Virus record (IMG/VR): IMGVR_UViG_3300033186_000014
Coordinates: 1 to 48,314 of that record
Source of the DNA: a virus
DNA length: 48,314 nt
Direction: 5' to 3' (one strand)
Part shown: positions 2,799 to 48,314 of the stretch, in pieces
Numbering within the stretch: the stretch's first letter is position 1
Layout: every line of letters starts with the position of its first letter
The notes under the pieces: generated by a model
The model's database searches: none
What the model was told of the DNA's origin: nothing
The model's input: only the letters and a program-made list of their open reading frames with translations
Translations under genes and position numbers: made by a program

Positions 2799-3068
2799 TT
2801 ATGCTGCCTGCCCTGCAAGTGGGATTTCAATGGCATATGCTTCCTGCCAAACGTCGGCATGGTAGGCTTTGACTGTGCCGTAGTTGGCATCAAACACGTC
2901 AATTGGAGGCAGTCCCATGTCTTTCGACGCCTGCTTTAGCTCACGCCAATTGAATTGCTGGCCGTGATAGAGCATCGACATGCGCTTGACAGATGCATAT
3001 TGCTGCGACTGGTCAAGCTCACGTTCAAGTTTGTTTGCCTTGCGTGTTGCAGCACTGGCCGTTGCCAT
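2799..3068 (-). CDS. Hypothetical protein (or a C-terminal domain of AntA reached by a -1 shift)
   Basis: 89-aa ORF with protein-like sequence (..YASVKRMSMLYHGQQFNWRELKQASKDMGLPPIDVFDANYGTVKAYH..). Its frame is open upstream to about 3142 and overlaps the AntA ORF tail by 133 nt. Confidence 0.5.
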   Translation of the reverse strand: MATASAATRKANKLERELDQSQQYASVKRMSMLYHGQQFNWRELKQASKDMGLPPIDVFDANYGTVKAYHADVWQEAYAIEIPLAGQAA

Positions 3069-3442
3069 GGCCGTCGCTTCCCGGCGTGATCCGATTTCGG
3101 CTTTGGTGGCAATTGCTCTGCGGACTTGGCCCTGCGCTCGCAGTCAATAAAATATTGTCGCGCTTGCTTCCCTTTTACGTTACGCTCGACCATGGAAAGC
3201 TCTTTGGCCATGTCAAGCGTCAAAAAATACTCAATGCGCGTGGCGTTGTTGGCTTCCATTTTTTCGTGGAAGCGAACGAAGTCAGATCCTTCAACAAAAC
3301 CGTACTGATCAATTCGGGCCTTAACCCACGTTGAGAAGTCTTGACCGCTCTCCAAGAACGCATGAAGTTCACGCGCATTGACTGTCTGGATTTGATCGTC
3401 ACCAATATTATTCATTTCAATTGAAATAAGATCATTCATCAC
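2936..3442 (-). CDS. AntA/AntB-type antirepressor domain protein
   Basis: QTVNARELHAFLESGQDFSTWVKARIDQYGFVEGSDF...YFLTLDMAKELSMVERNVKGKQARQYFIDCERR matches the AntA domain pattern. The last ~55 aa look non-protein-like. Confidence 0.75.
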   Translation of the reverse strand: MMNDLISIEMNNIGDDQIQTVNARELHAFLESGQDFSTWVKARIDQYGFVEGSDFVRFHEKMEANNATRIEYFLTLDMAKELSMVERNVKGKQARQYFIDCERRAKSAEQLPPKPKSDHAGKRRPWQRPVLQHARQTNLNVSLTSRSNMHLSSACRCSITASNSIGVS

Positions 3443-7794: not shown

Positions 7795-8648
7795 TCCGCT
7801 GACTTTCCAAGTTGATCTGCCCACGGGTCTGGGACCAAGGTTAAATTCGGAGCAGTACGCCCCGCTCTGCTGGCCCTGTTGGCGACCGCGGCGTCAGCGA
7901 ATGACGAGGGCCCACGGTTCTGGCTTGGCGATGACGCCCCTGACCTCTCCAGCCATTCAGGCTCAACGGATTTCCAGCCGCGCAAAATCATTTCATTCGC
8001 CGCAAGGACTGGATCAGGACATTTTTGGAGACGGTTCACCAGCCCCGTTGCTGCTCGTGGCGTATTCGGTGCCTTGAGTTTCGTTCGGTGCTTGGCAATG
8101 TCGTTTGCAAGCTCGTCACCGAGGATTGGCACAAGCGCTTCAACAAAAATTTGGCGATCAGATTTAGGCTTCAAAACAACAGAAGCCGAAGGCGTCTTTT
8201 TGGATATATCGTTAGATATATCTTTTTCTATATTTGGCTTTGGTTTTGGTTGGCATCCTTCGGGCATATGCCCCAGCGATGCGTCCGCATTGTCACTGCC
8301 ATTGTTTTTATTGTCTTTTTTATCCCATCGCGACTGTGCTGCAGCTTTCGCTTTCTCACTTTTTCCTGTCACGTTTTTGATCTCTTTTTCGGCCCGTTCG
8401 TTGGTGATGCGCCCTTCCCGCTCAACAATTTTCCCTTCGGAAATGAGGTATTCGAGCGCCTTTACAAACTTCGCCTTGCTGCCACACCCGCAGAGCCTTG
8501 CAAGCCGGTTGTCGTCCCGCTCGATAGGCCCGGCCATCTCGTAAATGCGAGCAACCAAAGTGATATAGACACCGGTTTCCTCGGCACTAAGCCCACGTGT
8601 TCCAGCAAGCCAGTCAGACGGGTAAAACGGGACGTGGACGATGCTCAT
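7791..8648 (-). CDS. DUF1376 (YdaU-like) replication-associated protein
   Basis: VPFYPSDWLAGTRGLSAEETGVYITLVARIYEMAGPIERDDNRLARLCGC is the characteristic DUF1376 N-terminus. SD GGGGG. Confidence 0.7.
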   Translation of the reverse strand: MSIVHVPFYPSDWLAGTRGLSAEETGVYITLVARIYEMAGPIERDDNRLARLCGCGSKAKFVKALEYLISEGKIVEREGRITNERAEKEIKNVTGKSEKAKAAAQSRWDKKDNKNNGSDNADASLGHMPEGCQPKPKPNIEKDISNDISKKTPSASVVLKPKSDRQIFVEALVPILGDELANDIAKHRTKLKAPNTPRAATGLVNRLQKCPDPVLAANEMILRGWKSVEPEWLERSGASSPSQNRGPSSFADAAVANRASRAGRTAPNLTLVPDPWADQLGKSAE

Positions 8649-8649
8649 A

Positions 8650-9135
8650 TCACCCCCTCACGTCCGCCAGCGAGCGGCGCAGGGCTTCCAGCGCGGTCAT
8701 CTGGCTGTCGATCTGCTTCTTAAGGGTTTGTGCTTCTTTCGGGGTGACCTTGCCGTCTTCCAGCGCATCAGCAACCGTTGCAGTAAAAGCACCGCAAGAG
8801 CCAAGCGCATGGATGCAGGCCGGGACCGGGGCTTCCTCTTTCGTGCATTCAATTTTCTGCACGCTGTAGCCTAGAACCTTCAAAAGCGAGGCTGCAATAA
8901 CGGGCTCTTGGCCCAAATCTTCAACCAAATGTCGATCAATCGCGACACAGGCCAAAGCAGGCGGGAAAACAGCATCGTTCGGATTGGCCCAGCGATACAA
9001 AAGGCTCGGCTCACGCCCCAGCTCAAACGCTGCGCTTTTGGGCCCGCCACTCCTTTGAAATGCCTCTTTCAAAGCGATGCAAAAATCTTCAACCAGACCG
9101 CTTGCAAGGCTAAAATTTGGATCTTTTTCGGCCAT
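8650..9135 (-). CDS. Regulatory protein, possibly CII (CP76)-like
   Basis: Start taken at ATG 9135 (MAEKDPNF..). It sits between cro and the replication genes. LLYRWANPND...ASLLKVLGY...DGKVTPKEAQTLKKQI loosely recalls phage CII/CP76 proteins. Confidence 0.4.
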   Translation of the reverse strand: MAEKDPNFSLASGLVEDFCIALKEAFQRSGGPKSAAFELGREPSLLYRWANPNDAVFPPALACVAIDRHLVEDLGQEPVIAASLLKVLGYSVQKIECTKEEAPVPACIHALGSCGAFTATVADALEDGKVTPKEAQTLKKQIDSQMTALEALRRSLADVRG

Positions 9136-9217
9136 TATAAAAAGGTCTCTCAATTGTAAATGACTTTTGTACGCATCTGTCCGATACTGAGACCGAAGCC
9201 AAGAGCGTCTAAGCGTT

Positions 9218-9420
9218 GGGGCCGGGCTGCTGGTTTGCTTAAACCCGGCCCCAGTTGGCGGACTTCCCCGGTTCATTTGTCTGCCGGGGTTCATAAGAGC
9301 GGGGACCGATTTGCTGGTTTTATAGGGGTCGGCCCCCGGCTCTAAAGGGTGCGGGACGGCCATTGGAGGGAAACCGCCCCGCTATGGCTGGCCCTGGGAG
9401 GGAGAGGAGCCGCACCAGCC
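9218..9420 (-). promoter_or_regulatory. GC-rich multi-hairpin untranslated region between the cro block and the CII-like gene (nutR/tR1-position analogue)
   Basis: Five stems: 9218-9252 (9 bp), 9266-9289 (6 bp), 9301-9337, 9351-9382 (9 bp) and 9386-9420 (6 bp). The two imperfect stems are G-U wobbles only on the minus-strand RNA. Confidence 0.45.
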
Positions 9421-9424
9421 ACTT

Positions 9425-9577
9425 TTATTCCATGCCCCAAGGCTCCGGCTTGATCTGCTTGATCTCGTCAATGAGCTGATCATATTCCTTAGAAAGCTGC
9501 CGATAATGCCAAGCCATAAACCAACCGTAACAAGCGAGACTAAGCAGGATGAACATTCCCAATGCATAGAAATCCAT
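9425..9577 (-). CDS. Small single-TM protein (50 aa), paralogue B
   Basis: AAGGAG lies 8 nt before the ATG. Encodes MDFYALGMFILLSLACYGWFMAWHYRQLSKEYDQLIDEIKQIKPEPWGME. Below the track cutoff. Confidence 0.5.
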   Translation of the reverse strand: MDFYALGMFILLSLACYGWFMAWHYRQLSKEYDQLIDEIKQIKPEPWGME

Positions 9578-9579
9578 GG

Positions 9580-9744
9580 TCACAACTCCTTACTCTTTTT
9601 AGCTTCAAGGCTGCTGTTCGATATGCGTGTTCTGACCCATGAGTCGCGAGGGTCTTTGCAAAGCTGCGGATAAAGCCAAGCCACGAACCAGAAAAAACAG
9701 CCAACCGCGATCAGAATGAAGCTTCCCAATGCGTAGAAATCCAT
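9580..9744 (-). CDS. Small single-TM protein (54 aa), paralogue A
   Basis: AGGAGGAG lies 5 nt before the ATG, 2 nt after the cro-like stop. Encodes MDFYALGSFILIAVGCFFWFVAWLYPQLCKDPRDSWVRTRISNSSLEAKKSKEL. Confidence 0.5.
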   Translation of the reverse strand: MDFYALGSFILIAVGCFFWFVAWLYPQLCKDPRDSWVRTRISNSSLEAKKSKEL

Positions 9745-9746
9745 GG

Positions 9747-9953
9747 TCACTCCTCCTTTGCTGTCTTCCAGCGGAAAAGGTCAAAAGGCACCTCTTGGCT
9801 ATTCTTCTTGCCAAGATCCGTAACCGCCCGATACCACGCAGCTGGGAATTTGCCGTCATAAATCGCATTGTAAACCGACGCGTTTGTCACGCCGACCTCA
9901 ACTGCAATTTGCGATACGCCGATGGCGCTAACGATTTGTTTGATATCAGTCAT
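9747..9953 (-). CDS. Cro-like HTH regulator
   Basis: MTDIKQIVSAIGVSQIAVEVGVTNASVYNAIYDGKFPAAWY is Cro/YdaS-type. Divergent from the XRE repressor gene. Confidence 0.7.
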   Translation of the reverse strand: MTDIKQIVSAIGVSQIAVEVGVTNASVYNAIYDGKFPAAWYRAVTDLGKKNSQEVPFDLFRWKTAKEE

Positions 9954-9963
9954 GAAAGCAGTA

Positions 9964-9980
9964 TTACAAGTTTCTTGTAA
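9964..9980. promoter_or_regulatory. Operator-like palindrome O1
   Basis: TTACAAG-ttt-CTTGTAA in the cI-like/cro-like intergenic region. Confidence 0.55.
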
Positions 9981-10006
9981 ATACACAAGTCAAAAATTCC
10001 TAAATA

Positions 10007-10022
10007 TACAAATTAATTTGAA
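10007..10022. promoter_or_regulatory. Operator-like palindrome O3
   Basis: TACAAA-ttaa-TTTGAA, with half-sites related to O1 and O2. Confidence 0.4.
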
Positions 10023-10039
10023 AGTGCCATTTTATCGCC

Positions 10040-10363
10040 ATGCAAAATGATCGCCCCAGCTCACCAGAAAACATTGCCACACGGCTAGAATGGCTGCGGG
10101 ATTATCACGGCCTGACATGGAAGGAATTTGCTGCCAGCATCAACGCATCGTCAGCAAAGGTCAGTAATTGGATAAATGGCACAGGCCGCCTATCTATTGA
10201 CGGCGCACTTTCAATTCGTGAGATCTATAGAGTTTCGTTGGATTTTTTGTATCTCGGCGATGCGTCATCATTGCCACTTGAAATGCGGAAATCGTGGATA
10301 TTACGAAATGGTGGAAGCATTTCCGAGACGGAAGAAGTTGTCTCGACCGTTAATAGTGACTGA
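10040..10363 (+). CDS. XRE-family repressor (cI analogue) lacking an S24 peptidase domain
   Basis: HTH region LTWKEFAASINASSAKVSNWINGTGRLSIDGALSIREIY. Only 107 aa. Confidence 0.75.
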   Translation: MQNDRPSSPENIATRLEWLRDYHGLTWKEFAASINASSAKVSNWINGTGRLSIDGALSIREIYRVSLDFLYLGDASSLPLEMRKSWILRNGGSISETEEVVSTVNSD

Positions 10364-10870
10364 CACAACAACCGCAATGCCTGGTCGCTGAAATTCTCTG
10401 TCCCGAACCACAATTGTTCTAGGGACAACCCTTTCCGCTCACACACATCAAGCAACATGTGTAGCCGATCATCCGCATTCATACTTATTACCTACTACTT
10501 GCAATATTTTAAACGCCCCACAGCCTGATTTGACGTTGCAGCAATAGCTTAGAGCCATCTATGATATGTTGCTAAACCACTTTTCGGTTGCTATGCGAAG
10601 AGTTAGCGGCAGATAACAAGCCGCTCCCATTCGCAAGAACTTCCCCCCGCGCAGACTGCAAAGACGCGTTTTTTAATACCAGCACAACAGCTCCCCGGGG
10701 GAGAGCGGGCGTACTAGATACGATAAGGCAAGTCTCTTTTGCCGAAAGTGAGGTGGTAGGAACACCTCACCCCGCGAATTATTACTTGCTACCATCCAGT
10801 ATGCAACCCTTAAACGATAACTTTTGCAAATTAGATCAATTCTATATTACAATTTTTTTTGAATTTTGCA

Positions 10871-10899
10871 TTGACGTTACAAATTATTTGTATTATTGT
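10871..10899 (+). promoter_or_regulatory. Early-left (PL-like) promoter with overlapping operator O2
   Basis: TTGACG, 17-bp spacer, TATTGT. The spacer contains TACAAA-tta-TTTGTA (10878-10892). A T8 UP-like tract lies at 10853-10860. Confidence 0.55.
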
Positions 10900-10943
10900 T
10901 TACCCATCACCGCAGAGAGCGGCAGCAACGATGGGAGACAACA

Positions 10944-11387
10944 ATGGGAACACGGGCATCATTCTTTATTGGCAATCCAGAAGACATTGAAAATCGCCAG
11001 TGGCTCGGCTGTGTGGCGTGGGATGGATATCCTGATGGTGACATTGGGCGTTTTCTTGAAGCTGCAACAACCGAAGACGATTTTGCCGAAGCCGTGAGCA
11101 AGATTGCAGCGTCGCGCGATGATTATTGCGATCCGAAAAAGTACGACTTCCCCTTCCCTTGGAGTGACGACCTTTTTCTGACCGACTTTACCTATGCTTT
11201 TTTTGATGAAGAAGTTTGGGCCACGAGCTTTCACACGGGCTGGGCATTGCTGAAAGAACATCTTAACGCAGATGATGAATGGCACGAGATGTACAGCAAT
11301 CGCGAAGAACTCCCAAGCAATGTACAAGCCCCGCAGAAAGCCGGGAAACCGGCAGGGCCAGACAGCATCATCATTATATCAGCCTAG
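10944..11387 (+). CDS. Hypothetical acidic early protein (147 aa)
   Basis: ATG 10944 follows the GGGAGA SD. First gene after the PL-like promoter. Confidence 0.65.
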   Translation: MGTRASFFIGNPEDIENRQWLGCVAWDGYPDGDIGRFLEAATTEDDFAEAVSKIAASRDDYCDPKKYDFPFPWSDDLFLTDFTYAFFDEEVWATSFHTGWALLKEHLNADDEWHEMYSNREELPSNVQAPQKAGKPAGPDSIIIISA

Positions 11388-11434
11388 CCCTTTTCCCTGC
11401 TGCTTTAACAGGCAGCAGTATTAAGAGCTATCAC
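11385..11434 (+). repeat. 50-bp intergenic repeat, copy 1 (contains a 7-bp hairpin)
   Basis: TAGCCCTTTTCCCTGCTGCTTTAACAGGCAGCAGTATTAAGAGCTATCAC is identical to 12059-12108. It begins with the stop codon of the preceding gene. Confidence 0.9.
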
Positions 11435-11465
11435 CGCAGAGAGCGGCAAACGATGGGAGATCCAA

Positions 11466-11846
11466 ATGGACATCAACGAAATGACAATCGGGCAGGCAAA
11501 AGAGCTTACTGCACTTTTTGGCGCAACCGCCAGCGCTGAACCGACCTTTACCAAGCACATCGGCAAGAAATGCATCATCCGAACCTATGCCAGCGGCGTG
11601 CATTTCGGAACGCTTACCGCCCAATCAGGCCGACAGGTTGAATTAAAAGATTCCCGCCGCCTTTGGAAATGGCACGCGAAGGACGGGATCAGTCTTTCTG
11701 AGGTTGCGATGACTGGCATTGATCAGAGCAAATCACGCATTTGCGCGGTCGTTGATGAAATGACCATCACCGACGCACTGGAAATCATCCCTGCAAAATC
11801 AAATGCAATTGAAAGCATCGAAACAGCACCGGTAGCGTCAAAATGA
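11466..11846 (+). CDS. Hypothetical conserved phage protein (126 aa)
   Basis: SD GGGAGA. ATGA coupling to the next gene. Confidence 0.65.
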   Translation: MDINEMTIGQAKELTALFGATASAEPTFTKHIGKKCIIRTYASGVHFGTLTAQSGRQVELKDSRRLWKWHAKDGISLSEVAMTGIDQSKSRICAVVDEMTITDALEIIPAKSNAIESIETAPVASK

Positions 11847-12061
11847 GCAAGTATTTTGAAGATTTTGAGGTGAGCGGCTCCGGCAACGGCTACGGCAACG
11901 GCGACGGCTTCGGCAACGGCTCCGGCTACGGCTACGGCAACGGCGACGGCTACGGCTACGGCTACGGCTACGGCAACGGCGACGGCTACGGCTACGGCGA
12001 CGGTGACGGCGACGGCTACGGCAACGGCGACGGCTACGGCGACGGTGACGGTGACGACTAG
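11843..12061 (+). CDS. (Gly-X)30 dipeptide-repeat protein, X = Tyr, Asn, Asp, Ser or Phe
   Basis: MSKYFEDFEVS followed by 30 GGC/GGT-NNN units and a terminal D. Translationally coupled (ATGA) to the upstream gene. Confidence 0.55.
   Translation: MSKYFEDFEVSGSGNGYGNGDGFGNGSGYGYGNGDGYGYGYGYGNGDGYGYGDGDGDGYGNGDGYGDGDGDD
11876..12055 (+). repeat. Hexanucleotide tandem repeat (GGC-TAC, -AAC, -GAC...) x30, coding
   Basis: Direct reading: ggctccggcaacggctacggcaacggcgacggc... Confidence 0.9.
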
Positions 12062-12108
12062 CCCTTTTCCCTGCTGCTTTAACAGGCAGCAGTATTAAGA
12101 GCTATCAC
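12059..12108 (+). repeat. 50-bp intergenic repeat, copy 2
   Basis: Exact copy of 11385-11434. Confidence 0.9.
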
Positions 12109-12122
12109 AAAGGAGCGGAACG

Positions 12123-12482
12123 ATGACCAACAGCCAATCAATGCAGATTTTCGACACGCTGATTGCAGCGATTGACGTGGCCAAAGCAAAGCAGAGCCGC
12201 TTTGAGGCAAACGGCCCGAACGGCAAGGCTGATGTAGCAAGTAGCACGCTGGAAATCATGAACGCTCTGACAGCGGCTTATGTGCAGACAATGCGCGATC
12301 TGAATGAAGATTGCATCGACATGACGGGTCTCGGCAATGCCGACAAAACAGACGCTAAGGATTTCTGCGAGGCTCTTGATGACCTCGTTGTCGAGAGCTT
12401 CACAGCCAAGCTTGAGACGGATGTTGAAGACTATCGACGCGGTGACGGCTGGTCTGATCCTTCAAACATCGCCGCCGAATAG
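12123..12482 (+). CDS. Hypothetical strongly acidic protein (119 aa, about 23 D/E against 10 K/R)
   Basis: SD AGGAG. Composition counted from the translation. Confidence 0.65.
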   Translation: MTNSQSMQIFDTLIAAIDVAKAKQSRFEANGPNGKADVASSTLEIMNALTAAYVQTMRDLNEDCIDMTGLGNADKTDAKDFCEALDDLVVESFTAKLETDVEDYRRGDGWSDPSNIAAE

Positions 12483-23593: not shown

Positions 23594-24781
23594 ATGCATA
23601 AACTAAAACCACTACAGATAAAAAATGCCAAGCCAGGCAAGTTTTCAGATGGAGGGGGACTCTATTTTGTCAAAACCGCAATATCTGCAAAATGGATATA
23701 CCGCTTCACAATCGGCGGCAAACGCCGAGAAATGGGGCTTGGGTCCTTTCCTTCTGTGAGTTTGGCGGACGCGCGACTGGAAAGGGACAAATGGGCAAAA
23801 GAAGTTCGAGCCAACCGAGATCCGATTATTGAAAGAGAAAATCAGCGGCAGACTGCAATCGATGAATTGAATAAAACAGATCCAACCTTTTCCGAGCTGG
23901 CCGAAATGGTATTCGAGGCAAAAAAGCCAAGCCTCAGAGGAGACGGAAAGAGAGGAAGATGGTTTTCTCCAATCAAAGTTCACCTAATCCCCAAAATTGG
24001 AAAAAAGCGCGTCAGTCAAATTACTCAGATTGATATTGACAATGCACTGCGCCCAATCTGGAAGACAAAAGCAGCCACCGCCGAAAAGGCGTCACAACGA
24101 CTTCGGATCATATTCCAACAAGGCAAATTAATGGGGCTTGAGACGGACCCCTTTACAGTCGATGCTGCAGTTCACGGTTTGGGAGATCTAAAGCGCACAG
24201 TCAAGCATATCAGGGCAACAGATTGGCGAGATATACCCGCGCTGTACGAAAAACTGAATAAACCACTGGCAACCCACAGAGCTTTGAGGTTGATAATCCT
24301 GACAGCTGTCCGGGCAACCCCAGCAAGAACCGCAACGAAAAGCGAGTTTGCGGGAGATATCTGGACTGTTCCAGCAGACAAAATGAAAGGGAAGGAAGGA
24401 AAGGTAAAAGACTTTCGCATACCCCTTTCACAGCAAGCCCAAGACGAAATCGCCATATGGATAAGTGAGGCAGAGCAGGACTGTCTTTTTTCAAGCCGCC
24501 GAGGGAAACCAATTAGCGACAGATCAATCGAGTTGGCGCTTGATGATATTGGAGAAGCGGGACGCCCCCATGGACTGCGGTCATCATTCCGCACTTGGGT
24601 CCAAGACACAGAGGCAGGGTCTTATGACGTGGCCGAAACCCAGCTGGCTCATATCATTGGAAACAAAGTCGAGCGCTCCTATGCCAGATCAGACCTATTA
24701 GACCAGCGTCGAATCCTCATGCAGAGGTGGGCGGATTACGTGACCAGGGCCGAAACAAAAGTTATAAAATTGAGGCGGTAG
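23594..24781 (+). CDS. int: Tyrosine integrase, P4-like (DUF4102 N-terminal arm domain)
   Basis: LSDGGGLYF-type N-terminus (FSDGGGLYFVKTAISAKWIYRF..GKRREMGLGSFP). Catalytic pattern ..LTAVR.., HGLRSSFRTW, LAHIIGNKVERSY. Confidence 0.9.
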   Translation: MHKLKPLQIKNAKPGKFSDGGGLYFVKTAISAKWIYRFTIGGKRREMGLGSFPSVSLADARLERDKWAKEVRANRDPIIERENQRQTAIDELNKTDPTFSELAEMVFEAKKPSLRGDGKRGRWFSPIKVHLIPKIGKKRVSQITQIDIDNALRPIWKTKAATAEKASQRLRIIFQQGKLMGLETDPFTVDAAVHGLGDLKRTVKHIRATDWRDIPALYEKLNKPLATHRALRLIILTAVRATPARTATKSEFAGDIWTVPADKMKGKEGKVKDFRIPLSQQAQDEIAIWISEAEQDCLFSSRRGKPISDRSIELALDDIGEAGRPHGLRSSFRTWVQDTEAGSYDVAETQLAHIIGNKVERSYARSDLLDQRRILMQRWADYVTRAETKVIKLRR

Positions 24782-36172: not shown

Positions 36173-36201
36173 AAAAAGGCCCCTCACCGAAATGAAGAGC
36201 C
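36173..36201 (-). terminator. Intrinsic terminator between the antirepressor and tape measure genes
   Basis: Minus strand reads GGCUCUUCA-uuucgg-UGAGGGGCC (7/9 pairs) followed by UUUUUCUAU, directly before the tape-measure SD. Confidence 0.5.
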
Positions 36202-36229
36202 TTTGTACTGGTTTAAATTGTTGTTGGCT

Positions 36230-36913
36230 TTAAGCCTGTGCCATCATTTCAGGCAACCGCCTGCGGAGCCATTCAAGCCCCCTTGGAGTAACGAAAGTCT
36301 GAGGGCGCATCTTGCCCGGTTCGTTTCGATCCTCAACGGGGAGCACCACGAAATAGCCCTGGTTGCGATAATATTGCGTCGGGGTTGCTGGCGTGCCGTA
36401 AAGCACCTTGCGACCGCGCAGTGCCTTGATTGCTTTGTTCGGACCAAAGCCCACAGTTTTCATTGCCCGGTTCAAGTTGTAGTTTTCTGACCGCGCCCCT
36501 ATGAAATGCTCATAGCTTTCAACCTTCGGCGCGACCGCCTCCAATTGTGCCACTGCTTTCTGCTCGCCCTTCTTTGCTGTGATCCACGCCTCTGCGGCTG
36601 CAATTGGATCTTCGAAGTTTGGCAGAGCAACGGCTGCTTTGCTTTCCAATTCTTGCCAACGGTCGATAATTCGGGCAGTGAACAATGGGTCAAGGTTGGC
36701 AACCAGATTGAGGCTTTCGGTTTTGTTGAGGCGGTAAATCAGCCGTGTATTATTGTTATTGTAACGCTCCTCAATCTCAGGAGCGCAAATAATGCCCTTT
36801 TCTTTCAATCGCCTAGCAACTACCATCACATTGTCATGCCGCTTGTTGCAAAGTTCGGCAATCTCGACCGTGGTCATGGTCATTTCATTTGAAATGTTTG
36901 TCAGATCGTTCAT
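36230..36913 (-). CDS. Antirepressor: Rha N-terminal domain plus KilAC C-terminal domain
   Basis: TTVEIAELCNKRHDNVMVVARRL (pRha-like). NFEDPIAAAEAW...APKVESYEHFIG...NQGYFVV (KilAC-like). Confidence 0.75.
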   Translation of the reverse strand: MNDLTNISNEMTMTTVEIAELCNKRHDNVMVVARRLKEKGIICAPEIEERYNNNNTRLIYRLNKTESLNLVANLDPLFTARIIDRWQELESKAAVALPNFEDPIAAAEAWITAKKGEQKAVAQLEAVAPKVESYEHFIGARSENYNLNRAMKTVGFGPNKAIKALRGRKVLYGTPATPTQYYRNQGYFVVLPVEDRNEPGKMRPQTFVTPRGLEWLRRRLPEMMAQA

Positions 36914-37185
36914 GCCACCGCCCCGCTTCTTTCGGCTGCGCGACGCTGATCAAGGAACTCAATAAGCTTTTCACGGTTTTTGGTGACGAGATTGGCCAGT
37001 AGAACGCGGCAGTTCGCATATCTGCGCAGCATTTCTTCATCGTGATATTCGGGAGCCTCCAACTTCTCGTCAAGAAGTATGATTGTTTCCCATACACCGT
37101 CTATTTCTTCGACAATGTCAGAAACATCATTGCATATTTTCAATGCGGCATTGCGGTTAGGATTAATCTGCGCTATATTCGTCAT
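36910..37185 (-). CDS. Hypothetical protein between the Arc-like and antirepressor genes
   Basis: ATGA overlaps on both sides. Confidence 0.55.
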   Translation of the reverse strand: MTNIAQINPNRNAALKICNDVSDIVEEIDGVWETIILLDEKLEAPEYHDEEMLRRYANCRVLLANLVTKNREKLIEFLDQRRAAERSGAVA

Positions 37186-37421
37186 AGAATTTTCCTTTTC
37201 CTAGCTGGTTGGGAAATTTGTGTGAAAGCTCCGGTGTTGCTGCACTGGGGCTTTCTTCGTTTCGGGATCAGTGCGGCCTCCTGTTCAGAAAGTTTCTTCT
37301 GACTTCTTAGCGCCCTCACTATCTCTTGGTTCATAGACGAAAAATTCTTGTCTTTCTGCTCTTGAAGCCATTGCTTGATATCAACTGGCATTCGAAGAGT
37401 AATGCGTGCTTCCTTTTGCAT
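37182..37421 (-). CDS. Arc-like ribbon-helix-helix repressor (the track ORF extends to 37508)
   Basis: MQKEARITLRMPVDIKQWLQEQKDKNFSSMNQEIVRALR fits the Arc/Mnt RHH pattern. First gene of the arc-orf-ant unit. Confidence 0.55.
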   Translation of the reverse strand: MQKEARITLRMPVDIKQWLQEQKDKNFSSMNQEIVRALRSQKKLSEQEAALIPKRRKPQCSNTGAFTQISQPARKRKIL

Positions 37422-37437
37422 TCGTGCTAACCTTTCT

Positions 37438-37519
37438 ATGACACACCGTGCGTCATATCCTATGTGTGGCATAGGTGTGGCATTGTTGTCAATAAAAAAG
37501 TGTGTCATTGGTGCGTCAT
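37438..37519. promoter_or_regulatory. Divergent control region with RHH-type operator repeats
   Basis: GTGTGGCAT x2 at 11-bp spacing (37464, 37475). Inverted ATGACACAC/GTGTGTCAT (37438, 37500). GTGCGTCAT x2 (37448, 37511). Confidence 0.5.
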
Positions 37520-37826
37520 GGCTAGAGAAGATTTACATTTTAGGCTTCGGATACCCGAAGAATTGAAAAAGCGCGTTGAAACTGCGGCAGCAGAGAACCA
37601 TCGTTCAATGACAGCCGAGATAATCGCCCGCCTTGAGGAAAGCTTCCAAAGCGAACAGGGCGTTGTTGTTGACGCAGAAGAGATTGCCAGGCTTGTTCAA
37701 AAGGTGATGGACGAAACCTTTGCGGGCAAAGTCGGCCCCGTTTTAACAATCCGCGATGCAAGAGACCGTCCCGACCCGATAACACGCGAGCCAGCAGCAA
37801 AGACCCATAAGTTCTCCAAAGACTAA
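37518..37826 (+). CDS. Mnt/Arc-like ribbon-helix-helix repressor, divergent
   Basis: MAREDLHFRLRIPEELKKRVETAAAENHRSMTAEIIARLEESF is a clear Arc-domain signature. Confidence 0.7.
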   Translation: MAREDLHFRLRIPEELKKRVETAAAENHRSMTAEIIARLEESFQSEQGVVVDAEEIARLVQKVMDETFAGKVGPVLTIRDARDRPDPITREPAAKTHKFSKD

Positions 37827-37898
37827 GCTGCACTTTCTTCTCTATCGACTTTTGATAGAAAATATGGTTATGCTTTTGTTGTAAAGCGGGAGGCCCAG

Positions 37899-38117
37899 AT
37901 GACTAACAGATACGATAATCGTGAAATTTTCTCTGTTGACGCAGGTTTGATACAACTCGCTCAAACTGATGATGGCCCAATAGCTTGGACAAGCTTGCAC
38001 ATTGATATCACATCGATCGATGGGACGCAGATGGGCCCTGGGATTGCGAAGGAGCCGAAGGAGAATTTGAAGCAGGCATTTTGTAAAACTCCCTTGTTTC
38101 GTGTGCGGGAAGAGTAG
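37899..38117 (+). CDS. Hypothetical protein (72 aa)
   Basis: SD GGGAGG. Confidence 0.55.
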   Translation: MTNRYDNREIFSVDAGLIQLAQTDDGPIAWTSLHIDITSIDGTQMGPGIAKEPKENLKQAFCKTPLFRVREE

Positions 38118-38146
38118 GTTCTTTCATCTCCTAAATCGGAGGTTTC

Positions 38147-38698
38147 ATGTTTAAGGCTCTTGTTTCTGTTGCTGCGATCTGCGTGATTGCTGCAACCGGT
38201 TGGTTCTTCTGGGGCGAATATCAAAACGCTAAGAAAATGAACGCTGAATTAGCTTCCTCCGAGAGTGAGGTAGACAACAGCACGCTATCTCTTATCAGCA
38301 AGCCTTCCTGCACACTTGAGCAGATCAGGGCTAAGACGACGATTACTTTTGGCCGTCTTTACGATGCCGAGAACAAGCAAAACAGCATCTTCTTCTATGT
38401 AAAAAACAACCTTCCCTGGACGCTTTCTGGAGCACAGGTTGAGTACGAAGTTTACTTTGAAGGGAAGCCTGAACCGAGCTTTAAGCAAGCTGAAATTGTC
38501 GCCTTCCCTAATGGCATCGCACCTGATACGCAACGCTGGTTCTACACCCTACCATTCACCTTCCCTTTTCTTGGTGAAGAGCCAAAAGAAGTCTCTATGC
38601 GAGTGGTCGACGTAGCTGACCAGTACAAGCGCTTCGTCCTCCACCATCCAACAGGAGGGGATTGGATGAAGGAACTCAGCACCAATAAGTGCAACTAA
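38147..38698 (+). CDS. N-terminally membrane-anchored protein, candidate superinfection-exclusion or conversion factor
   Basis: SD GGAGG. TM LVSVAAICVIAATGWFFW followed by a ~150-aa beta-rich domain. Confidence 0.65.
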   Translation: MFKALVSVAAICVIAATGWFFWGEYQNAKKMNAELASSESEVDNSTLSLISKPSCTLEQIRAKTTITFGRLYDAENKQNSIFFYVKNNLPWTLSGAQVEYEVYFEGKPEPSFKQAEIVAFPNGIAPDTQRWFYTLPFTFPFLGEEPKEVSMRVVDVADQYKRFVLHHPTGGDWMKELSTNKCN

Positions 38699-39449
38699 CT
38701 CGTTTTTTCTTCTTCCCGCTTTCTTTGGTCGTCACGCTCTTTGTAGAGCGCTTCCAGATAGGCGGAATCCATAGCCTTTAGGGTCGTGATTTCGTCTCTC
38801 CTGACGATCTCACCAGTCAGCCTCATCCAGCATTCTATTTCGGAATATTGAAAGGGTTGAGGTCCATTCATTCCAAGAGGAGCTGAGTCCCGTAAGGTCC
38901 AAAACCAGACCCAAAGATGTGACCAATGCGGCTTGATCTCAACCGGATCCGGCGTCTTGTCATCCATGCCGAAGCGAGCATTCATTTCTCGCCTTGTTTC
39001 ACCATTGCCGTCCGGCGTCTCGTACCTCGCTATTTGGCTGACTGCTTGGCAAAGCTCTTCGACGAGGTTGCGAGAAAATTTGCCAGATCGTTCGCCGCCT
39101 CATTGACAAGAGCGAACATCCAATCCTCTGCTTCGAGAACCTTCATGACATTTTCTGGTGTGCATTCAAGCTGCTCGCCATTGTAATCATGCTCGCCCCA
39201 ATCCCAAGAGTCGACAAAGGATGCCACTTCTTCAAGACTTGCATCCAGAACCGTTTCACTTGTGGTGTCTGACTTGTCTTTCTGGCGTTGGATGCCATCG
39301 TCGATCAGCTTGCGGCGTGTGGCTTTCACCTTGTCACTTGAGGCTGAGAGAATGAAGAAGGTGATGCCGATGTCCTTGCCAATTACGGGAGGGATCATCT
39401 TCAAGGCAAAAGGCTTGTTGTAGCCGTATAGTTTCGCAATATCAGCCAT
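38695..39449 (-). CDS. Tail assembly chaperone GT-like fusion produced by -1 programmed frameshift
   Basis: Slippery heptamer A_AAT_TTT at 39081-39075 in the G frame. The -1 frame is open from 39099 to the stop at 38695 and contains track ORF 38695..38985. Confidence 0.65.
39030..39449 (-). CDS. Tail assembly chaperone (G-like)
   Basis: Position between the tail tube gene and the T-like frame. 139 aa, acidic. Confidence 0.7.
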   Translation of the reverse strand: MADIAKLYGYNKPFALKMIPPVIGKDIGITFFILSASSDKVKATRRKLIDDGIQRQKDKSDTTSETVLDASLEEVASFVDSWDWGEHDYNGEQLECTPENVMKVLEAEDWMFALVNEAANDLANFLATSSKSFAKQSAK

Positions 39450-39459
39450 GGTTCACCCC

Positions 39460-39939
39460 TTAAGTCGCATCAACGCGAATTGGCAGCTGGTTCAAGCCGA
39501 TAGTGAACCGCTCGATGTCGAAGTCATCGTTGCCACCGCCAACAAGCACGGGCCCGGAGACAACCCCGCGAGAATAGAAGATGGTGTTGGTCGACCCACC
39601 AGCTGGCATATCATTGCGCTCGATCTTTACCGCAATGTTGTTCAGGTTGGTTGGAACGCCGAAGGTGCGCAGTTCGTCTTGACCGGCGTCGGACGCATCA
39701 GATGCAACTTCAATGGTGAGATCGCCAGCGTTCGCCGTGCCTTTCTGCTTCTGAGTTACATCTTCATCAAGAGTGTCGTACGTGACAATGTTGCTCTCAG
39801 ACCCGAAGTCACCAACATTTCCGACTTTGCTAACCTGGACCCAAGTAAGCGCTTCAAATGCTGTTTGGTTCAGGTCGGCATTCTGAGCAGTTGCACAGAC
39901 ATAAGTCTTGCTGCCCTTTTTCGTGCTTTTATTTGCCAT
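39460..39939 (-). CDS. Major tail (tube) protein
   Basis: 159 aa, beta-rich. Upstream of the chaperone pair, downstream of the tail terminator. Confidence 0.75.
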   Translation of the reverse strand: MANKSTKKGSKTYVCATAQNADLNQTAFEALTWVQVSKVGNVGDFGSESNIVTYDTLDEDVTQKQKGTANAGDLTIEVASDASDAGQDELRTFGVPTNLNNIAVKIERNDMPAGGSTNTIFYSRGVVSGPVLVGGGNDDFDIERFTIGLNQLPIRVDAT

Positions 39940-40383: not shown

Positions 40384-40593
40384 ATGACTGAAAAGCTCAC
40401 AGACGAACAAGTCCATGAACGGGTCTACTTGGCGATGCTTTCGCTCGGTAAAGAGGAAGGCGAAACGGTTCGGGGCAACACCACCTTGGAAGCCGCCCGC
40501 CGTGCGCTCATGCTTCTGCAGCTAGGCTTGGTCAATGCGATGGAGAAGAACGAAGACAAGAACATCGCAATCAAAGATCGAAGCGAGCCTTGA
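40384..40593 (+). CDS. Possible opposite-strand small ORF (69 aa) in an otherwise unexplained 200-bp gap
   Basis: MTEKLTDEQVHERVYLAMLSLGKEEGETVRGNTTLEAARRALMLLQLGLVNAMEK.. is helical and protein-like. The minus-strand frames here are poor. Weak SD (GGTG). Confidence 0.35.
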   Translation: MTEKLTDEQVHERVYLAMLSLGKEEGETVRGNTTLEAARRALMLLQLGLVNAMEKNEDKNIAIKDRSEP

Positions 40594-45668: not shown

Positions 45669-47135
45669 CTAACCATCAACGATATCGTCATCATCTCCGG
45701 GCAGTTCGTCCGTCAGACGTTCGATTTCATCCTTGAATGTTCGATTAGGGCCAATGTATCCACGGCGCTTAGCCTCTTCGAACCACGTCTCTTGCGAGAT
45801 GTCGCCACGGTCACGGGCCTTGGCCAAATCCTCTGCTCCGGTATCCTCTTTCATATCAAGGCTAAAATCTGTATTTAGTTGAACAACAGGCTGAGCGTTT
45901 GATTTTTGCCAGTCAGCCGTTGCCTTAAGACAGTTTTCAAGAAAATCCTTGCAATTAAGGGCCCACGCCTCGATGGCGCTGTTTGCTTTGTCGCCTGCAA
46001 ACGCCGCAGTAATTGTAGTAATGTTGCCCGACTGTGATGTGAGTGGTTGACGCCCAAGCTCTCTTAACTGCGCCTCTGTCTTGTCCACTTCGTCAGAACA
46101 AAAAGTCAATGATGTGCCAGCAGGCTCCAGAACTTGCCAATCACCATGAGAGCCCGACCCATCAGGAGGCGCATAGAGAACTGCAAACGGACCCACAGGC
46201 AGCGGCGTCGGCTTGCCGTCATCACCCTTTGGAGGCATGACGCCATTCCCGGCCAACATCGCGAACGCTGTACGCTGGCGCATATATTTGAGTTCACTCT
46301 CCTGCTGGAAATGCTCAATCTGAAGATCAGCAGCACGTTCCATAGCGGGCTTTACGACCCACGATGAACCAACACGCTTGCCTGTGGTGAATGGAAACAA
46401 AGGAATATAACCGATGGAATAGGCACCGGCGTCAACCTCAATCCAACGTTTCTTTCCATCCTTGTCTTTTTGCTTTTCCATAAGAGACCATAAGGGAGCC
46501 CCGGCACCCGTCGCATTTCCTAACTGGTCTCTATCAACAGTGCGCTCAATTACACGCACACGCTCTGTAATCGCTTCGCCGTAACCGTCACGAACCTTTT
46601 GATCTTCCTTGATCCTTACATGTGTGATTACCTCTTTGCCTGCAATCGCCTCAGAATAGACTGCAAGAACATCAGAGCCGTTTAGGTGCACCCAATATGG
46701 CCGAATACCAGAAGCCTTCACTTCAGCTCTAGTGGCGTTTTCCTTAATGTTTGATGGATAGTCAACCATCACCCAAGTGAGAGCATCAACTACACCGGCA
46801 TGGAAAACCTTCCCGGCAAACACGTGAATGTGACTACCCTGCCCGTCGATGTCTTCGAGCAGATCTTTCAAATCTCCTTCGTCTGAAACAGTTATTTCCT
46901 GCTCAAAAGGCTTGGCTGCAAGTGTGTCAACAATATCCGCAAAGATATTGGTAAACTTGGCATTCCCAAGTCTCAGTTCATAATCTTTATTGGATTCATG
47001 TGGAAACTGGGGCAGGAAAGTTTTGCCAGATTCACGCATGGCTGCCGTGCCGCCCATGATTGCCGCCGTTTTTACCCAATAAGGAACCATAGCGTCATAG
47101 TCAGACGATGTGCTTTCAGGTGTCTTTTCCTGCAT
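45669..47135 (-). CDS. Portal protein (DUF4055-type)
   Basis: 488 aa. Its ATG overlaps the terL stop (TAATG). N-terminal YDAMVPYWVKTAAIMGGTAAMRESGKTFLPQFPHES. Confidence 0.8.
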   Translation of the reverse strand: MQEKTPESTSSDYDAMVPYWVKTAAIMGGTAAMRESGKTFLPQFPHESNKDYELRLGNAKFTNIFADIVDTLAAKPFEQEITVSDEGDLKDLLEDIDGQGSHIHVFAGKVFHAGVVDALTWVMVDYPSNIKENATRAEVKASGIRPYWVHLNGSDVLAVYSEAIAGKEVITHVRIKEDQKVRDGYGEAITERVRVIERTVDRDQLGNATGAGAPLWSLMEKQKDKDGKKRWIEVDAGAYSIGYIPLFPFTTGKRVGSSWVVKPAMERAADLQIEHFQQESELKYMRQRTAFAMLAGNGVMPPKGDDGKPTPLPVGPFAVLYAPPDGSGSHGDWQVLEPAGTSLTFCSDEVDKTEAQLRELGRQPLTSQSGNITTITAAFAGDKANSAIEAWALNCKDFLENCLKATADWQKSNAQPVVQLNTDFSLDMKEDTGAEDLAKARDRGDISQETWFEEAKRRGYIGPNRTFKDEIERLTDELPGDDDDIVDG

Positions 47136-48314
47136 TATCTAGCCGTTCCTGAATATGTGCCTACAAGGGCCGTTGGCGCGTTTCTGCTGGCAAGCTCATT
47201 GAATGCTCTAGCAGAGGCGTCCACGATGTCTTTAAGTTTGCCGCTTGGGAAGACCTCAATCTCATCAAGAAAGCCTTCGTTCCAAGCTCCTTTTAGCAAC
47301 ATCACGTTGCCCGCTTCGCATTGAGCTGCTAAGGGCTCGGCCCTTGTTTCTTTGTCGCCGGTCTCTGGCGTTGCCCGCGCGGTATATCCTTCCAACATAC
47401 CAACAAGTTGCTGCGCTTGGTCCTTGCCCGCCTGGCCGGGATCTTTTGGCATTGAAATCTTGCAAGAATGGCCGTCCTGATCTGCTGTATTTTTAATCAG
47501 CCTGCGAACACCCGCAGGAGATTCCCTCTCGGCTTTGCAATCGGCGACAATGAATTTTCCGTCAGGCGTGCGCCCAATCTTGACACCCGCTGTCCTTGCG
47601 CCTTCCCCGTCTTTGGTTGCGGCTAAGTCCCATCCCCTGACAAACTGCGTCCCAGCTGGCACTGCGTTGACAATCGAGAAGTAGGAGCGTTTGAACATAC
47701 CCCCGCCTCTAGGTGCCGGCCTTTGCTGGTTCTGCCCCGCATGAGCGATCGAGCCTAGAGAAACCTTGTCCCGCTCAACAGCCTGTCGTGAAAACCGCCT
47801 TTCAAAGAGCAGTTCACCATCCTGCGTTCTTGGGTCTTGGTTGTAGACCTTTTTGGGCTTTGCGTTCTCTACGAACTCACGGCGGTTCTCAGGGACTTCA
47901 TCGCCTTCTTTGTACCAAACCTGCTTCTGAGCATCGTATCGCGCTGTGACAGGCTCTCCAGCGTCAAAATGCGTTGGTTTGACCACCGTGTAGCATCGTC
48001 TTTGCGGCTCGAACTCCATGGGAAGCATTAAATGCTCATATCCAAGGCTCTTGGCCAGCGCTACGCCTGTCGTGTCTTCCTCATTCAGGCGCTGCATCAC
48101 CATGACGATCGCCGACTTATCGGGATCGGTCAAACGGCTTGGAACGGCTTCAAGGAATGTTTCCTTTGCTGTCAATCGATCTGCGTCGGACTTGGCCTGA
48201 TCAACGGATAGGGGGTCATCAATGATCACCCTGTCACCACGCTCACCGGTCAAGGACTTGAACGACATAGCAGCCCGAAAGCCCATGTGGTCGTTCTCGA
48301 ACTTCCTTGTCGCG
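47135..48314 (-). CDS. terL: Terminase large subunit, C-terminal part (nuclease domain); continues from 1..504
   Basis: ..GERGDRVIIDDPLSVDQAKSDADR.. (Walker-B-like) and a C-terminal RNaseH-like region. The frame stays open to the window end. Confidence 0.9.
   Translation of the reverse strand, partial: ATRKFENDHMGFRAAMSFKSLTGERGDRVIIDDPLSVDQAKSDADRLTAKETFLEAVPSRLTDPDKSAIVMVMQRLNEEDTTGVALAKSLGYEHLMLPMEFEPQRRCYTVVKPTHFDAGEPVTARYDAQKQVWYKEGDEVPENRREFVENAKPKKVYNQDPRTQDGELLFERRFSRQAVERDKVSLGSIAHAGQNQQRPAPRGGGMFKRSYFSIVNAVPAGTQFVRGWDLAATKDGEGARTAGVKIGRTPDGKFIVADCKAERESPAGVRRLIKNTADQDGHSCKISMPKDPGQAGKDQAQQLVGMLEGYTARATPETGDKETRAEPLAAQCEAGNVMLLKGAWNEGFLDEIEVFPSGKLKDIVDASARAFNELASRNAPTALVGTYSGTAR
48236..48314. 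repeat. Terminal direct repeat (copy 2), circular-closure overlap
   Basis: Exact 79/79 match to bases 1-79. Confidence 0.95.

Follow-up and report, generated by a model that had tools for sequence, protein, structure and literature searches.

The immI region of phage P22 is embedded in the late operon; on the annotated map, gene 16 (+) is followed by sieA, orf59a and mnt (all -), the operators, arc and ant (both +), a terminator and gene 9 (+). To our knowledge, this region has so far been regarded as typical of enterobacterial podoviruses related to P22, and the literature retrieved dealt mainly with P22-like phages. Antirepressor-dependent induction with non-cleavable repressors is also known from the Gifsy phages, 186 (Tum), SPC32H (Ant) and N15 (AntC), in which the antirepressor genes are LexA-controlled. 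Here we analyzed the IMG/VR virus record IMGVR_UViG_3300033186_000014, a stretch of 48,314 bp that is the entire public contig and is referred to below as the window. Its late operon is interrupted by a 2.5-kb island (positions 36,173 to 38,698) between the T part of the GT tail assembly chaperone and the gene for the tape-measure protein (TMP). We consider it probable that this island is an immI-type self-regulated accessory cassette placed in a cargo slot. What is new here is the immI logic, together with its regulators, in combination with a different effector family, a different type of virus and a different host class, and evidence for mobility of the cassette. No description of an immI-like module at the GT-TMP junction was found in the literature, of which coverage was incomplete, and its absence is not proven.

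Read along the late strand, the T gene is followed by orf183, orf72 and a Mnt-like gene, all antisense, then by a repeat array, and then by an Arc-like gene, orf91, a gene for a Rha+KilAC protein, a terminator and TMP (Table 1). This arrangement is collinear with P22 immI gene for gene, in order as well as in orientation relative to the late operon. In both phages the block is embedded between two virion genes and a terminator separates ant from the next late gene; also, a Mnt homolog with an N-terminal DNA-reading arm is encoded on one side, a putative Arc-family ribbon-helix-helix (RHH) protein comes first in the ant operon, the divergent genes are separated by a stretch with operator-like repeats, and a small open reading frame (ORF) and a membrane-protein gene are located downstream of mnt. 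A preliminary description, made from the sequence of the window, had claimed a divergent arrangement of mnt and arc-ant. ORF positions and comparison with the P22 map bear this out: every island ORF was found where it had been placed, and the Mnt-like gene and the arc-orf91-ant operon are on opposite strands, 96 bp apart. The two plus-strand genes beyond mnt had been left uninterpreted, and the parallel to P22 extends to them. It had also been pointed out that late transcription is obliged to cross the island, with which the geometry agrees; however, antisense read-through does not distinguish this locus, as P22 immI is likewise embedded in a late operon. Overall, the preliminary description was right in architecture and regulator homology, left antirepressor function unproven, and overstated the uniqueness of the site.

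The island differs from P22 immI in several respects. The effector is a Rha+KilAC protein, whereas P22 Ant is of the P22_AR type; the orphan orf91 is translationally coupled between arc and ant; the intergenic space for a sar RNA does not exist here and only a speculative antisense hairpin with a promoter-like site is seen; the membrane protein is unrelated to SieA; the repeats are of one 9-mer type, unlike the two distinct operators of P22; and the carrier is a siphovirus of an alphaproteobacterium with the GT-TMP junction as the site, as opposed to gene 16-tailspike in P22.

Table 1. Coordinates of the island features and of the late-operon and regulatory genes discussed in the text.
Feature	Position	Strand	Remarks
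Intrinsic terminator after ant	36175-36204	-	13-bp stem, 4-nt loop, U-run
Rha+KilAC protein ("Ant"), 227 aa, cassette effector	36230-36913	-	PF09669 + PF03374
orf91, orphan ORF	36910-37185	-	4-nt overlaps (ATGA) with arc at its start and with ant at its stop
Arc-like RHH protein, 79 aa, first gene of arc-orf91-ant operon	37182-37421	-	Pfam Arc E 0.012 (below cut-off); PHROG RHH families 3e-6 to 5e-3
Operator-like array, six GTGYGKCAT half-sites	37438-37519		82-bp stretch between RHH genes
Mnt-like RHH repressor, 102 aa	37518-37826	+	Pfam Arc E 1.7e-13
orf72, small ORF	37899-38117	+	Position of P22 orf59a; called in L001
orf183, membrane-anchored beta-sandwich protein	38147-38698	+	Position of P22 sieA
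Weak promoter-like site TCGACA-18-CATATT, 9/12	37109-37138	+	Upstream of the 14-bp hairpin
Antisense hairpin, 14-bp, T-rich tail	37224-37255	+	Inside non-conserved 3' tail of arc-like gene; top terminator-like match
TMP	34152-36158/36161	-	PF09718 E 2.6e-25
Dit	After TMP		phrog_12948 E 9e-50; further tail genes beyond
T part of GT chaperone, 96-aa ORF	38695-38985	-	PF23812 Phage_TAC_18 E 3.5e-8
Tail assembly chaperone G, 139 aa	39030-39449	-	phrog_313 E 1.5e-13
-1 slippery heptamer A AAT TTT for G-T fusion	39081-39075	-	Within G frame
Tail tube	39460-39939	-	PF08813; directly upstream of G
Tail terminator	40370-39942	-	Late-operon gene
Mu-F-like head protein	42044-41010	-	Late-operon gene
NusG-like transcription antiterminator, 222 aa	2083-2751	-	phrog_6386 "transcription antiterminator" E 8.5e-12; Pfam NusG E 9e-4 (below cut-off)

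Both regulators had been assigned to the RHH family, and profile searches supported this strongly for the Mnt-like protein and weakly for the Arc-like protein. The Mnt-like protein is 32% identical to P22 Mnt over 75 amino acids (BLASTP, E 7e-11), has the N-terminal arm MAR(E/D)D.HF in common with it, and gave PDB sequence matches to Arc, AmrZ and Mnt (1mnt, E 1.8e-4). Homologs occupy the same position in two of the contigs used for comparison, L008 and L043. By sequence, it is a true Mnt homolog. The Arc-like protein showed 32% identity to P22 Arc over 44 amino acids in a pairwise comparison (E 4e-4), and the best match of a PDB profile search was to Mnt at an E value of only 0.36. The presumptive DNA-reading strands of the two proteins, as read from their sequences, differ (H-R-R in HFRLR versus R-T-R in RITLR), which would be compatible with related but distinct specificities.

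Instead of a transcription switch, the two RHH proteins and the repeat array might form a system of the partition or toxin-antitoxin type. The best PHROG of the Mnt-like protein, phrog_795, is labeled "partition protein ATPase", RHH binding to direct repeats with 11-bp spacing is typical of ParG/omega-type centromere binders, and FitA- and HicB-type RHH matches are also present. Because P22 mnt itself (NC_002371, 14519-14770) bears the same RefSeq product name, we discount the label as a probable annotation artifact, most likely a mis-annotation that was carried over from this PHROG. Besides, no ParA-type ATPase or toxin gene was detected in the island with Pfam or PHROG, and the phage has an integrase. 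We regard a partition or toxin-antitoxin function as highly improbable.

The 9-mer GTGYGKCAT occurs six times in the window, all six within the array between the two RHH genes, compared with 1.56 occurrences expected per window. One inverted pair (37438-46 and 37448-56) makes up a 19-bp near-palindrome located 17-35 nt upstream of the arc start, and the direct pairs at 37464/37475 and 37500/37511 have an 11-bp period, with one of these pairs overlapping the mnt-like start codon. The half-sites are candidate operators. In L008, copies of a GTGTCA core also cluster between mnt and arc; a near-consensus 10/12 promoter (TTGACA-17-TAAATT) faces arc there and is overlapped by palindromes containing this core, and two opposing promoter-like sites face mnt. 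Intergenic promoters picked by hand in the window (ATGACA-17-TATGTG facing mnt and an isolated TTGACA facing arc) were weak and were set aside.

At the other end of the operon, the terminator that had been proposed after ant is present as a hairpin with a U-run, and the 86-nt stretch containing it folds at a minimum free energy of -20.9 kcal/mol; the Shine-Dalgarno sequence and start codon of TMP follow immediately. A terminator for the mnt-arm operon was also looked for and was not found. The plus-strand hairpin inside the 3' tail of the arc-like gene lies in a region with a z-score of -2.3 and, together with the promoter-like site upstream, spans 37109-37265 (+), antisense to the start of orf91 and the 3' end of arc. 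Purely as a hypothesis, this span may be a candidate sar-like antisense RNA, with the hairpin as its terminator and a geometry like that of P22 sar.

Both domains named in the preliminary description were identified in the effector, PF09669 (Phage_pRha) at residues 13-90 (E 6.5e-9) and PF03374 (ANT/KilAC) at residues 122-220 (E 1.4e-15), each above the curated cut-off. The protein also matches phrog_63, "anti-repressor Ant" (E 5e-44). This term is used here as a family label only, and antirepressor activity is putative. The candidate prophage repressor, a protein of 107 amino acids (10040-10363), had Pfam matches to helix-turn-helix (HTH) families only and none to a peptidase domain, and antirepressor-dependent control would therefore fit. 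A short HTH repressor without a peptidase match and antirepressor-family genes in one genome are also features of the Gifsy, Tum, SPC32H and N15 type of induction; however, those antirepressors are LexA-controlled, whereas here control appears to be exerted by RHH proteins.

A cassette of this type would operate as follows. In the lysogen, the Mnt-like repressor would be made together with orf72 and orf183, which follow it in the same orientation, by transcription directed against the late operon. If bound to the GTGYGKCAT array, it would silence the divergent arc-orf91-ant genes. Upon infection of a cell free of Mnt, the ant promoter would fire and the Arc-like protein, encoded first, would shut it off, which by analogy to P22 would result in a short pulse of effector. 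The effector might then act in trans on repressor- or SOS-controlled switches, either its own 107-aa HTH repressor or those of resident prophages; this step is the least certain. During lytic growth, the geometry of the locus implies that the late transcript would run the length of the island, in antisense over the mnt arm and in sense over arc-ant, and would have to read through the terminator located before the TMP ribosome-binding site. Antitermination would probably involve the NusG-like protein, whose gene is on the same strand as the terminase genes and just ahead of them, the position that Q holds in lambda. It is possible that this protein is a NusG/RfaH-type late antiterminator, and it is a candidate factor for passage of the ant terminator.

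Several observations weigh against an immI-type switch as described above. The Arc-like gene was missed by the public gene caller and its Pfam score is sub-threshold; nevertheless, we consider the gene real because a 50-aa gene at the equivalent position in L008 was called and is 44% identical over the RHH core. None of the sites in the mnt/arc intergenic region of the window passed a sigma-70 consensus scan, and counts in the scan for sar-like candidates were not above shuffled expectation. LexA boxes (GTTC-N7-GTTC and CTGT-N8-ACAG, the alpha and gamma types) were absent from the window, and SOS control of ant was ruled out on this basis. Three island genes also have no assigned role: neither Pfam nor PHROG families matched orf183, orf72 or orf91, no function was assigned to the first two, and orf91 had no homologs among 5.8 billion proteins. 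At the position of orf91, a different gene is present in L008 and L074 and none in L011. In addition, a second Ant-type gene outside the island (2936-3442, -), located in the early/late-regulatory operon and containing an AntA/AntB domain (PF08346, E 4.6e-28; phrog_5817, E 7e-44), could be the real induction factor. Finally, the effector is not a P22-type Ant; it showed no BLASTP similarity to P22 Ant, and its Rha+KilAC architecture also fits Roi-type DNA-binding proteins and AriS-type SOS inhibitors (PMC9043618).

The last point leads to a different view of the effector, in which immI-type regulation is retained and the product is AriS- or Roi-like. KilAC would damp the host SOS/RecA response and Rha would bind DNA to tune phage genes, and the outcome would be coordination of the incoming phage with resident prophages. 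For AriS of Listeria phage phi10403S, experiments showed that the KilAC domain alone inhibits the SOS response, and Rha+KilAC is one of three AriS-like architectures (PMC9043618). The effector is 39% identical to lambdoid Roi, and its closest homologs in isolated phages are annotated as DNA-binding protein Roi. It is unrelated in sequence to P22 Ant and also to P22 Rha. On the other hand, AriS of phi10403S and Roi of HK022 and other lambdoid phages are encoded in early or nin regions without a divergent Mnt/Arc pair, and the same is true of an effector homolog (47% identity) in L012, a Cohaesibacter metagenome-assembled genome (MAG), which is located in an early operon that lacks RHH genes. 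Such tight control by two RHH proteins, with a transient pulse, is the hallmark of a product that endangers lysogeny, and KilAC is also found in the Ant proteins of P1 and P7 (PMC9043618). With these points considered, an AriS- or Roi-like effector seems rather doubtful to us, and we continue with the reading of the island as an immI-type cassette with a putative antirepressor.

The nearest homologs of the effector were found in uncultured Cohaesibacter, Pelagibacterium and unassigned metagenome assemblies, and it is 54-72% identical to homologs located in the same kind of cassette. In three contigs, L008 (64% identity), L010 (60%) and L011 (54%), a divergent RHH gene faces a small RHH gene, which is followed, sometimes after an extra ORF, by Ant; these cassettes are placed between virion genes and tail-fibre or lysis genes. 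In a fourth, L009 (57%), the cassette is at a prophage end. When the cassette of L008 was compared with that of the window, the Mnt, Arc and Ant proteins were 39%, 44% and 64% identical, respectively, and the antisense arm of L011 ends with a small membrane protein. Within the fetched flanks, only cassette genes were common to the window and the cassette-bearing contigs, which points to modular transfer. By these comparisons, the cassette looks like a mobile module; it recurs in three or more marine phage contigs that are otherwise unrelated, and also at one prophage end. A further locus, L043:7413-9321, is located downstream of a tail tube gene and contains a Mnt-like RHH gene (148 aa) and a gene for a transmembrane (TM) protein, divergent from a KilA-N protein (PF04383, E 1.4e-18); judged by its gene content, it is an immI-like cassette with another effector family.

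Homologous Mnt/Arc regulators with a different effector family, in a siphovirus of a distant host class, and recurrence of the cassette in several unrelated marine phage contigs suggest a portable circuit whose payload can be exchanged. A more general model, which we put forward only tentatively, is that the immI design extends beyond P22-like podoviruses and may be a mobile, self-contained pulse-expression cassette built from RHH proteins of the Mnt and Arc types, an operator array of repeats, and a terminator. It might move between unrelated marine alphaproteobacterial phages, always into late operons; its effectors (Rha+KilAC here, KilA-N in L043) and prophage-expressed envelope genes would be swappable, and it may include a sar-like RNA. 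In the window it would have entered the GT-TMP slot, making tail-gene expression dependent on antitermination. These loci provide a comparative set for two questions, namely, selection for the Mnt/Arc double-repressor design and the real role of Rha/KilAC "antirepressors".

With regard to the insertion site, characterized temperate relatives were found via Dit (31-43% identity), namely Rhizobium phage 16-3, Agrobacterium phage Rivra and Brucella phage BiPBO1. These three phages have TMP directly after the chaperone pair and lack the island, as the preliminary description had proposed for relatives. In BiPBO1 (L006), a region at 8365-12270, between tail protein gp18 and tail fibre gp29, contains genes for toxins, repressors and regulators in mixed orientation. 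Searches of genome and viral collections anchored on TMP and Dit gave almost nothing, and the tail tube protein was used instead; this search yielded 61 viral contigs, approximately 27 of which had 70-75% identity. The junction survey was based on the 21 tail-tube relatives with recognizable T and TMP (contigs among L013-L055). Every one of the 21 had antisense cargo at the T-TMP junction, with a size of 598-3137 bp (median 1484); examples are L015:8291-10933, L020:8291-11428 and L021:8291-11057. The cargo was of lower GC content (46-58% against 57-61%), many of its ORFs had signal-peptide or lipoprotein-like N-termini, and some loci contained an IS200-like Y1 transposase (PF01797). We found no arc, mnt or ant in any of the 21. 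The GT-TMP junction is a recurrent cargo slot in this tail-module lineage, and the window is distinctive in slot content; the site is thus not exceptional for this lineage. Knowledge of a recurrent cargo site at this junction helps prophage annotation and might also help phage engineering.

The cargo of these relatives raises the question of whether the island is a moron of the ordinary kind, in a slot that merely gathers genes expressed from the prophage, and plays no part in the lysis-lysogeny decision of its own phage. The mnt arm would then be an operon for lysogenic conversion or superinfection exclusion that encodes its own regulator, and arc-orf91-ant a hitch-hiking selfish module. Such a view is consistent with the 0.6-3.1 kb of low-GC antisense cargo in all surveyed relatives, including lipoprotein-like genes and the transposase, with the nature of orf183 as a membrane-anchored extracytoplasmic protein, and with the observation that nothing apart from cassette genes is common to the other cassette-bearing contigs. 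Tail-operon morons and cargo islands such as the toxin-antitoxin/regulator island of BiPBO1 also resemble it as antisense, lower-GC blocks that interrupt a late operon, and the GC content of the island is 47.9% versus 50.3-51.4% in its flanks. However, the island contains an entire regulatory switch as opposed to individual conversion genes, RHH or Ant genes are missing from the cargo of all 21 relatives, and conservation of the unit with its operators across different phages, as seen in the comparison with L008, argues for a selected regulatory function. We consider simple moron cargo improbable and retain the immI-type cassette as the preferred interpretation.

The product of orf183 was analyzed further. 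Its stop codon overlaps that of T by 4 nt. Searches with orf91 and orf183 over 5.8 and 1.8 billion proteins gave no or very weak homologs; for orf183, these were six relatives with 23-31% identity, all of which have a signal peptide or TM segment and no assigned function. An AlphaFold2 model built with the alignment (predicted local distance difference test, pLDDT, 74.7) consists of an N-terminal TM helix and a beta-sandwich, for which Foldseek returned only generic immunoglobulin-like folds (best E value in PDB 4e-3; matches in BFVD were uncharacterized). A homolog of SieA was ruled out, as no BLASTP similarity was detected and only position and membrane anchoring are in common.

The structural genes of the contig are on the minus strand in the order head, tail terminator, tail tube, G, T, the island, TMP and Dit. 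G/GT and TMP had been named as the flanks of the island, and both are supported by family matches; for the T ORF, two GT-fusion families, phrog_8233 and phrog_4966, were also matched at their C-terminal ends. By frame inspection, T is in the -1 frame relative to G and is open from 39099. Because this open frame is accompanied by a canonical slippery heptamer in G, the G/GT assignment is sound, and the locus has the lambda-type arrangement of two overlapping ORFs with a -1 frameshift heptamer upstream of TMP.

The phage is a temperate siphovirus whose host is probably a marine member of Hyphomicrobiales such as Cohaesibacter. A Cohaesibacter-like host is supported by L012, as this MAG has the repressor type of the window and an early protein that is 80% identical. 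No isolated close relative was found; neither the island nor either half of the window had a megablast match among 50,697 phage records. A small terminase gene (389-910, -) is located at the left end, a large terminase gene (47135-48286, -) at the right end and an integrase gene (23594-24781, +) in the middle of the contig, and the window appears to be an essentially complete, circularly permuted genome of a temperate phage. Another small antisense gene (40384-40593, +; 69 aa, phrog_20321, E 3.6e-23) was observed in the late operon between a head-tail gene and the tail terminator gene. In the immunity region, two tandem paralogous small ORFs (9425-9583 and 9580-9750, -) are located between a Cro-like ORF (9747-9986) and a CII-like gene (8650-9363); they have the start VTMDFYALG... 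and a hydrophobic core in common and look like duplicated small membrane peptides.

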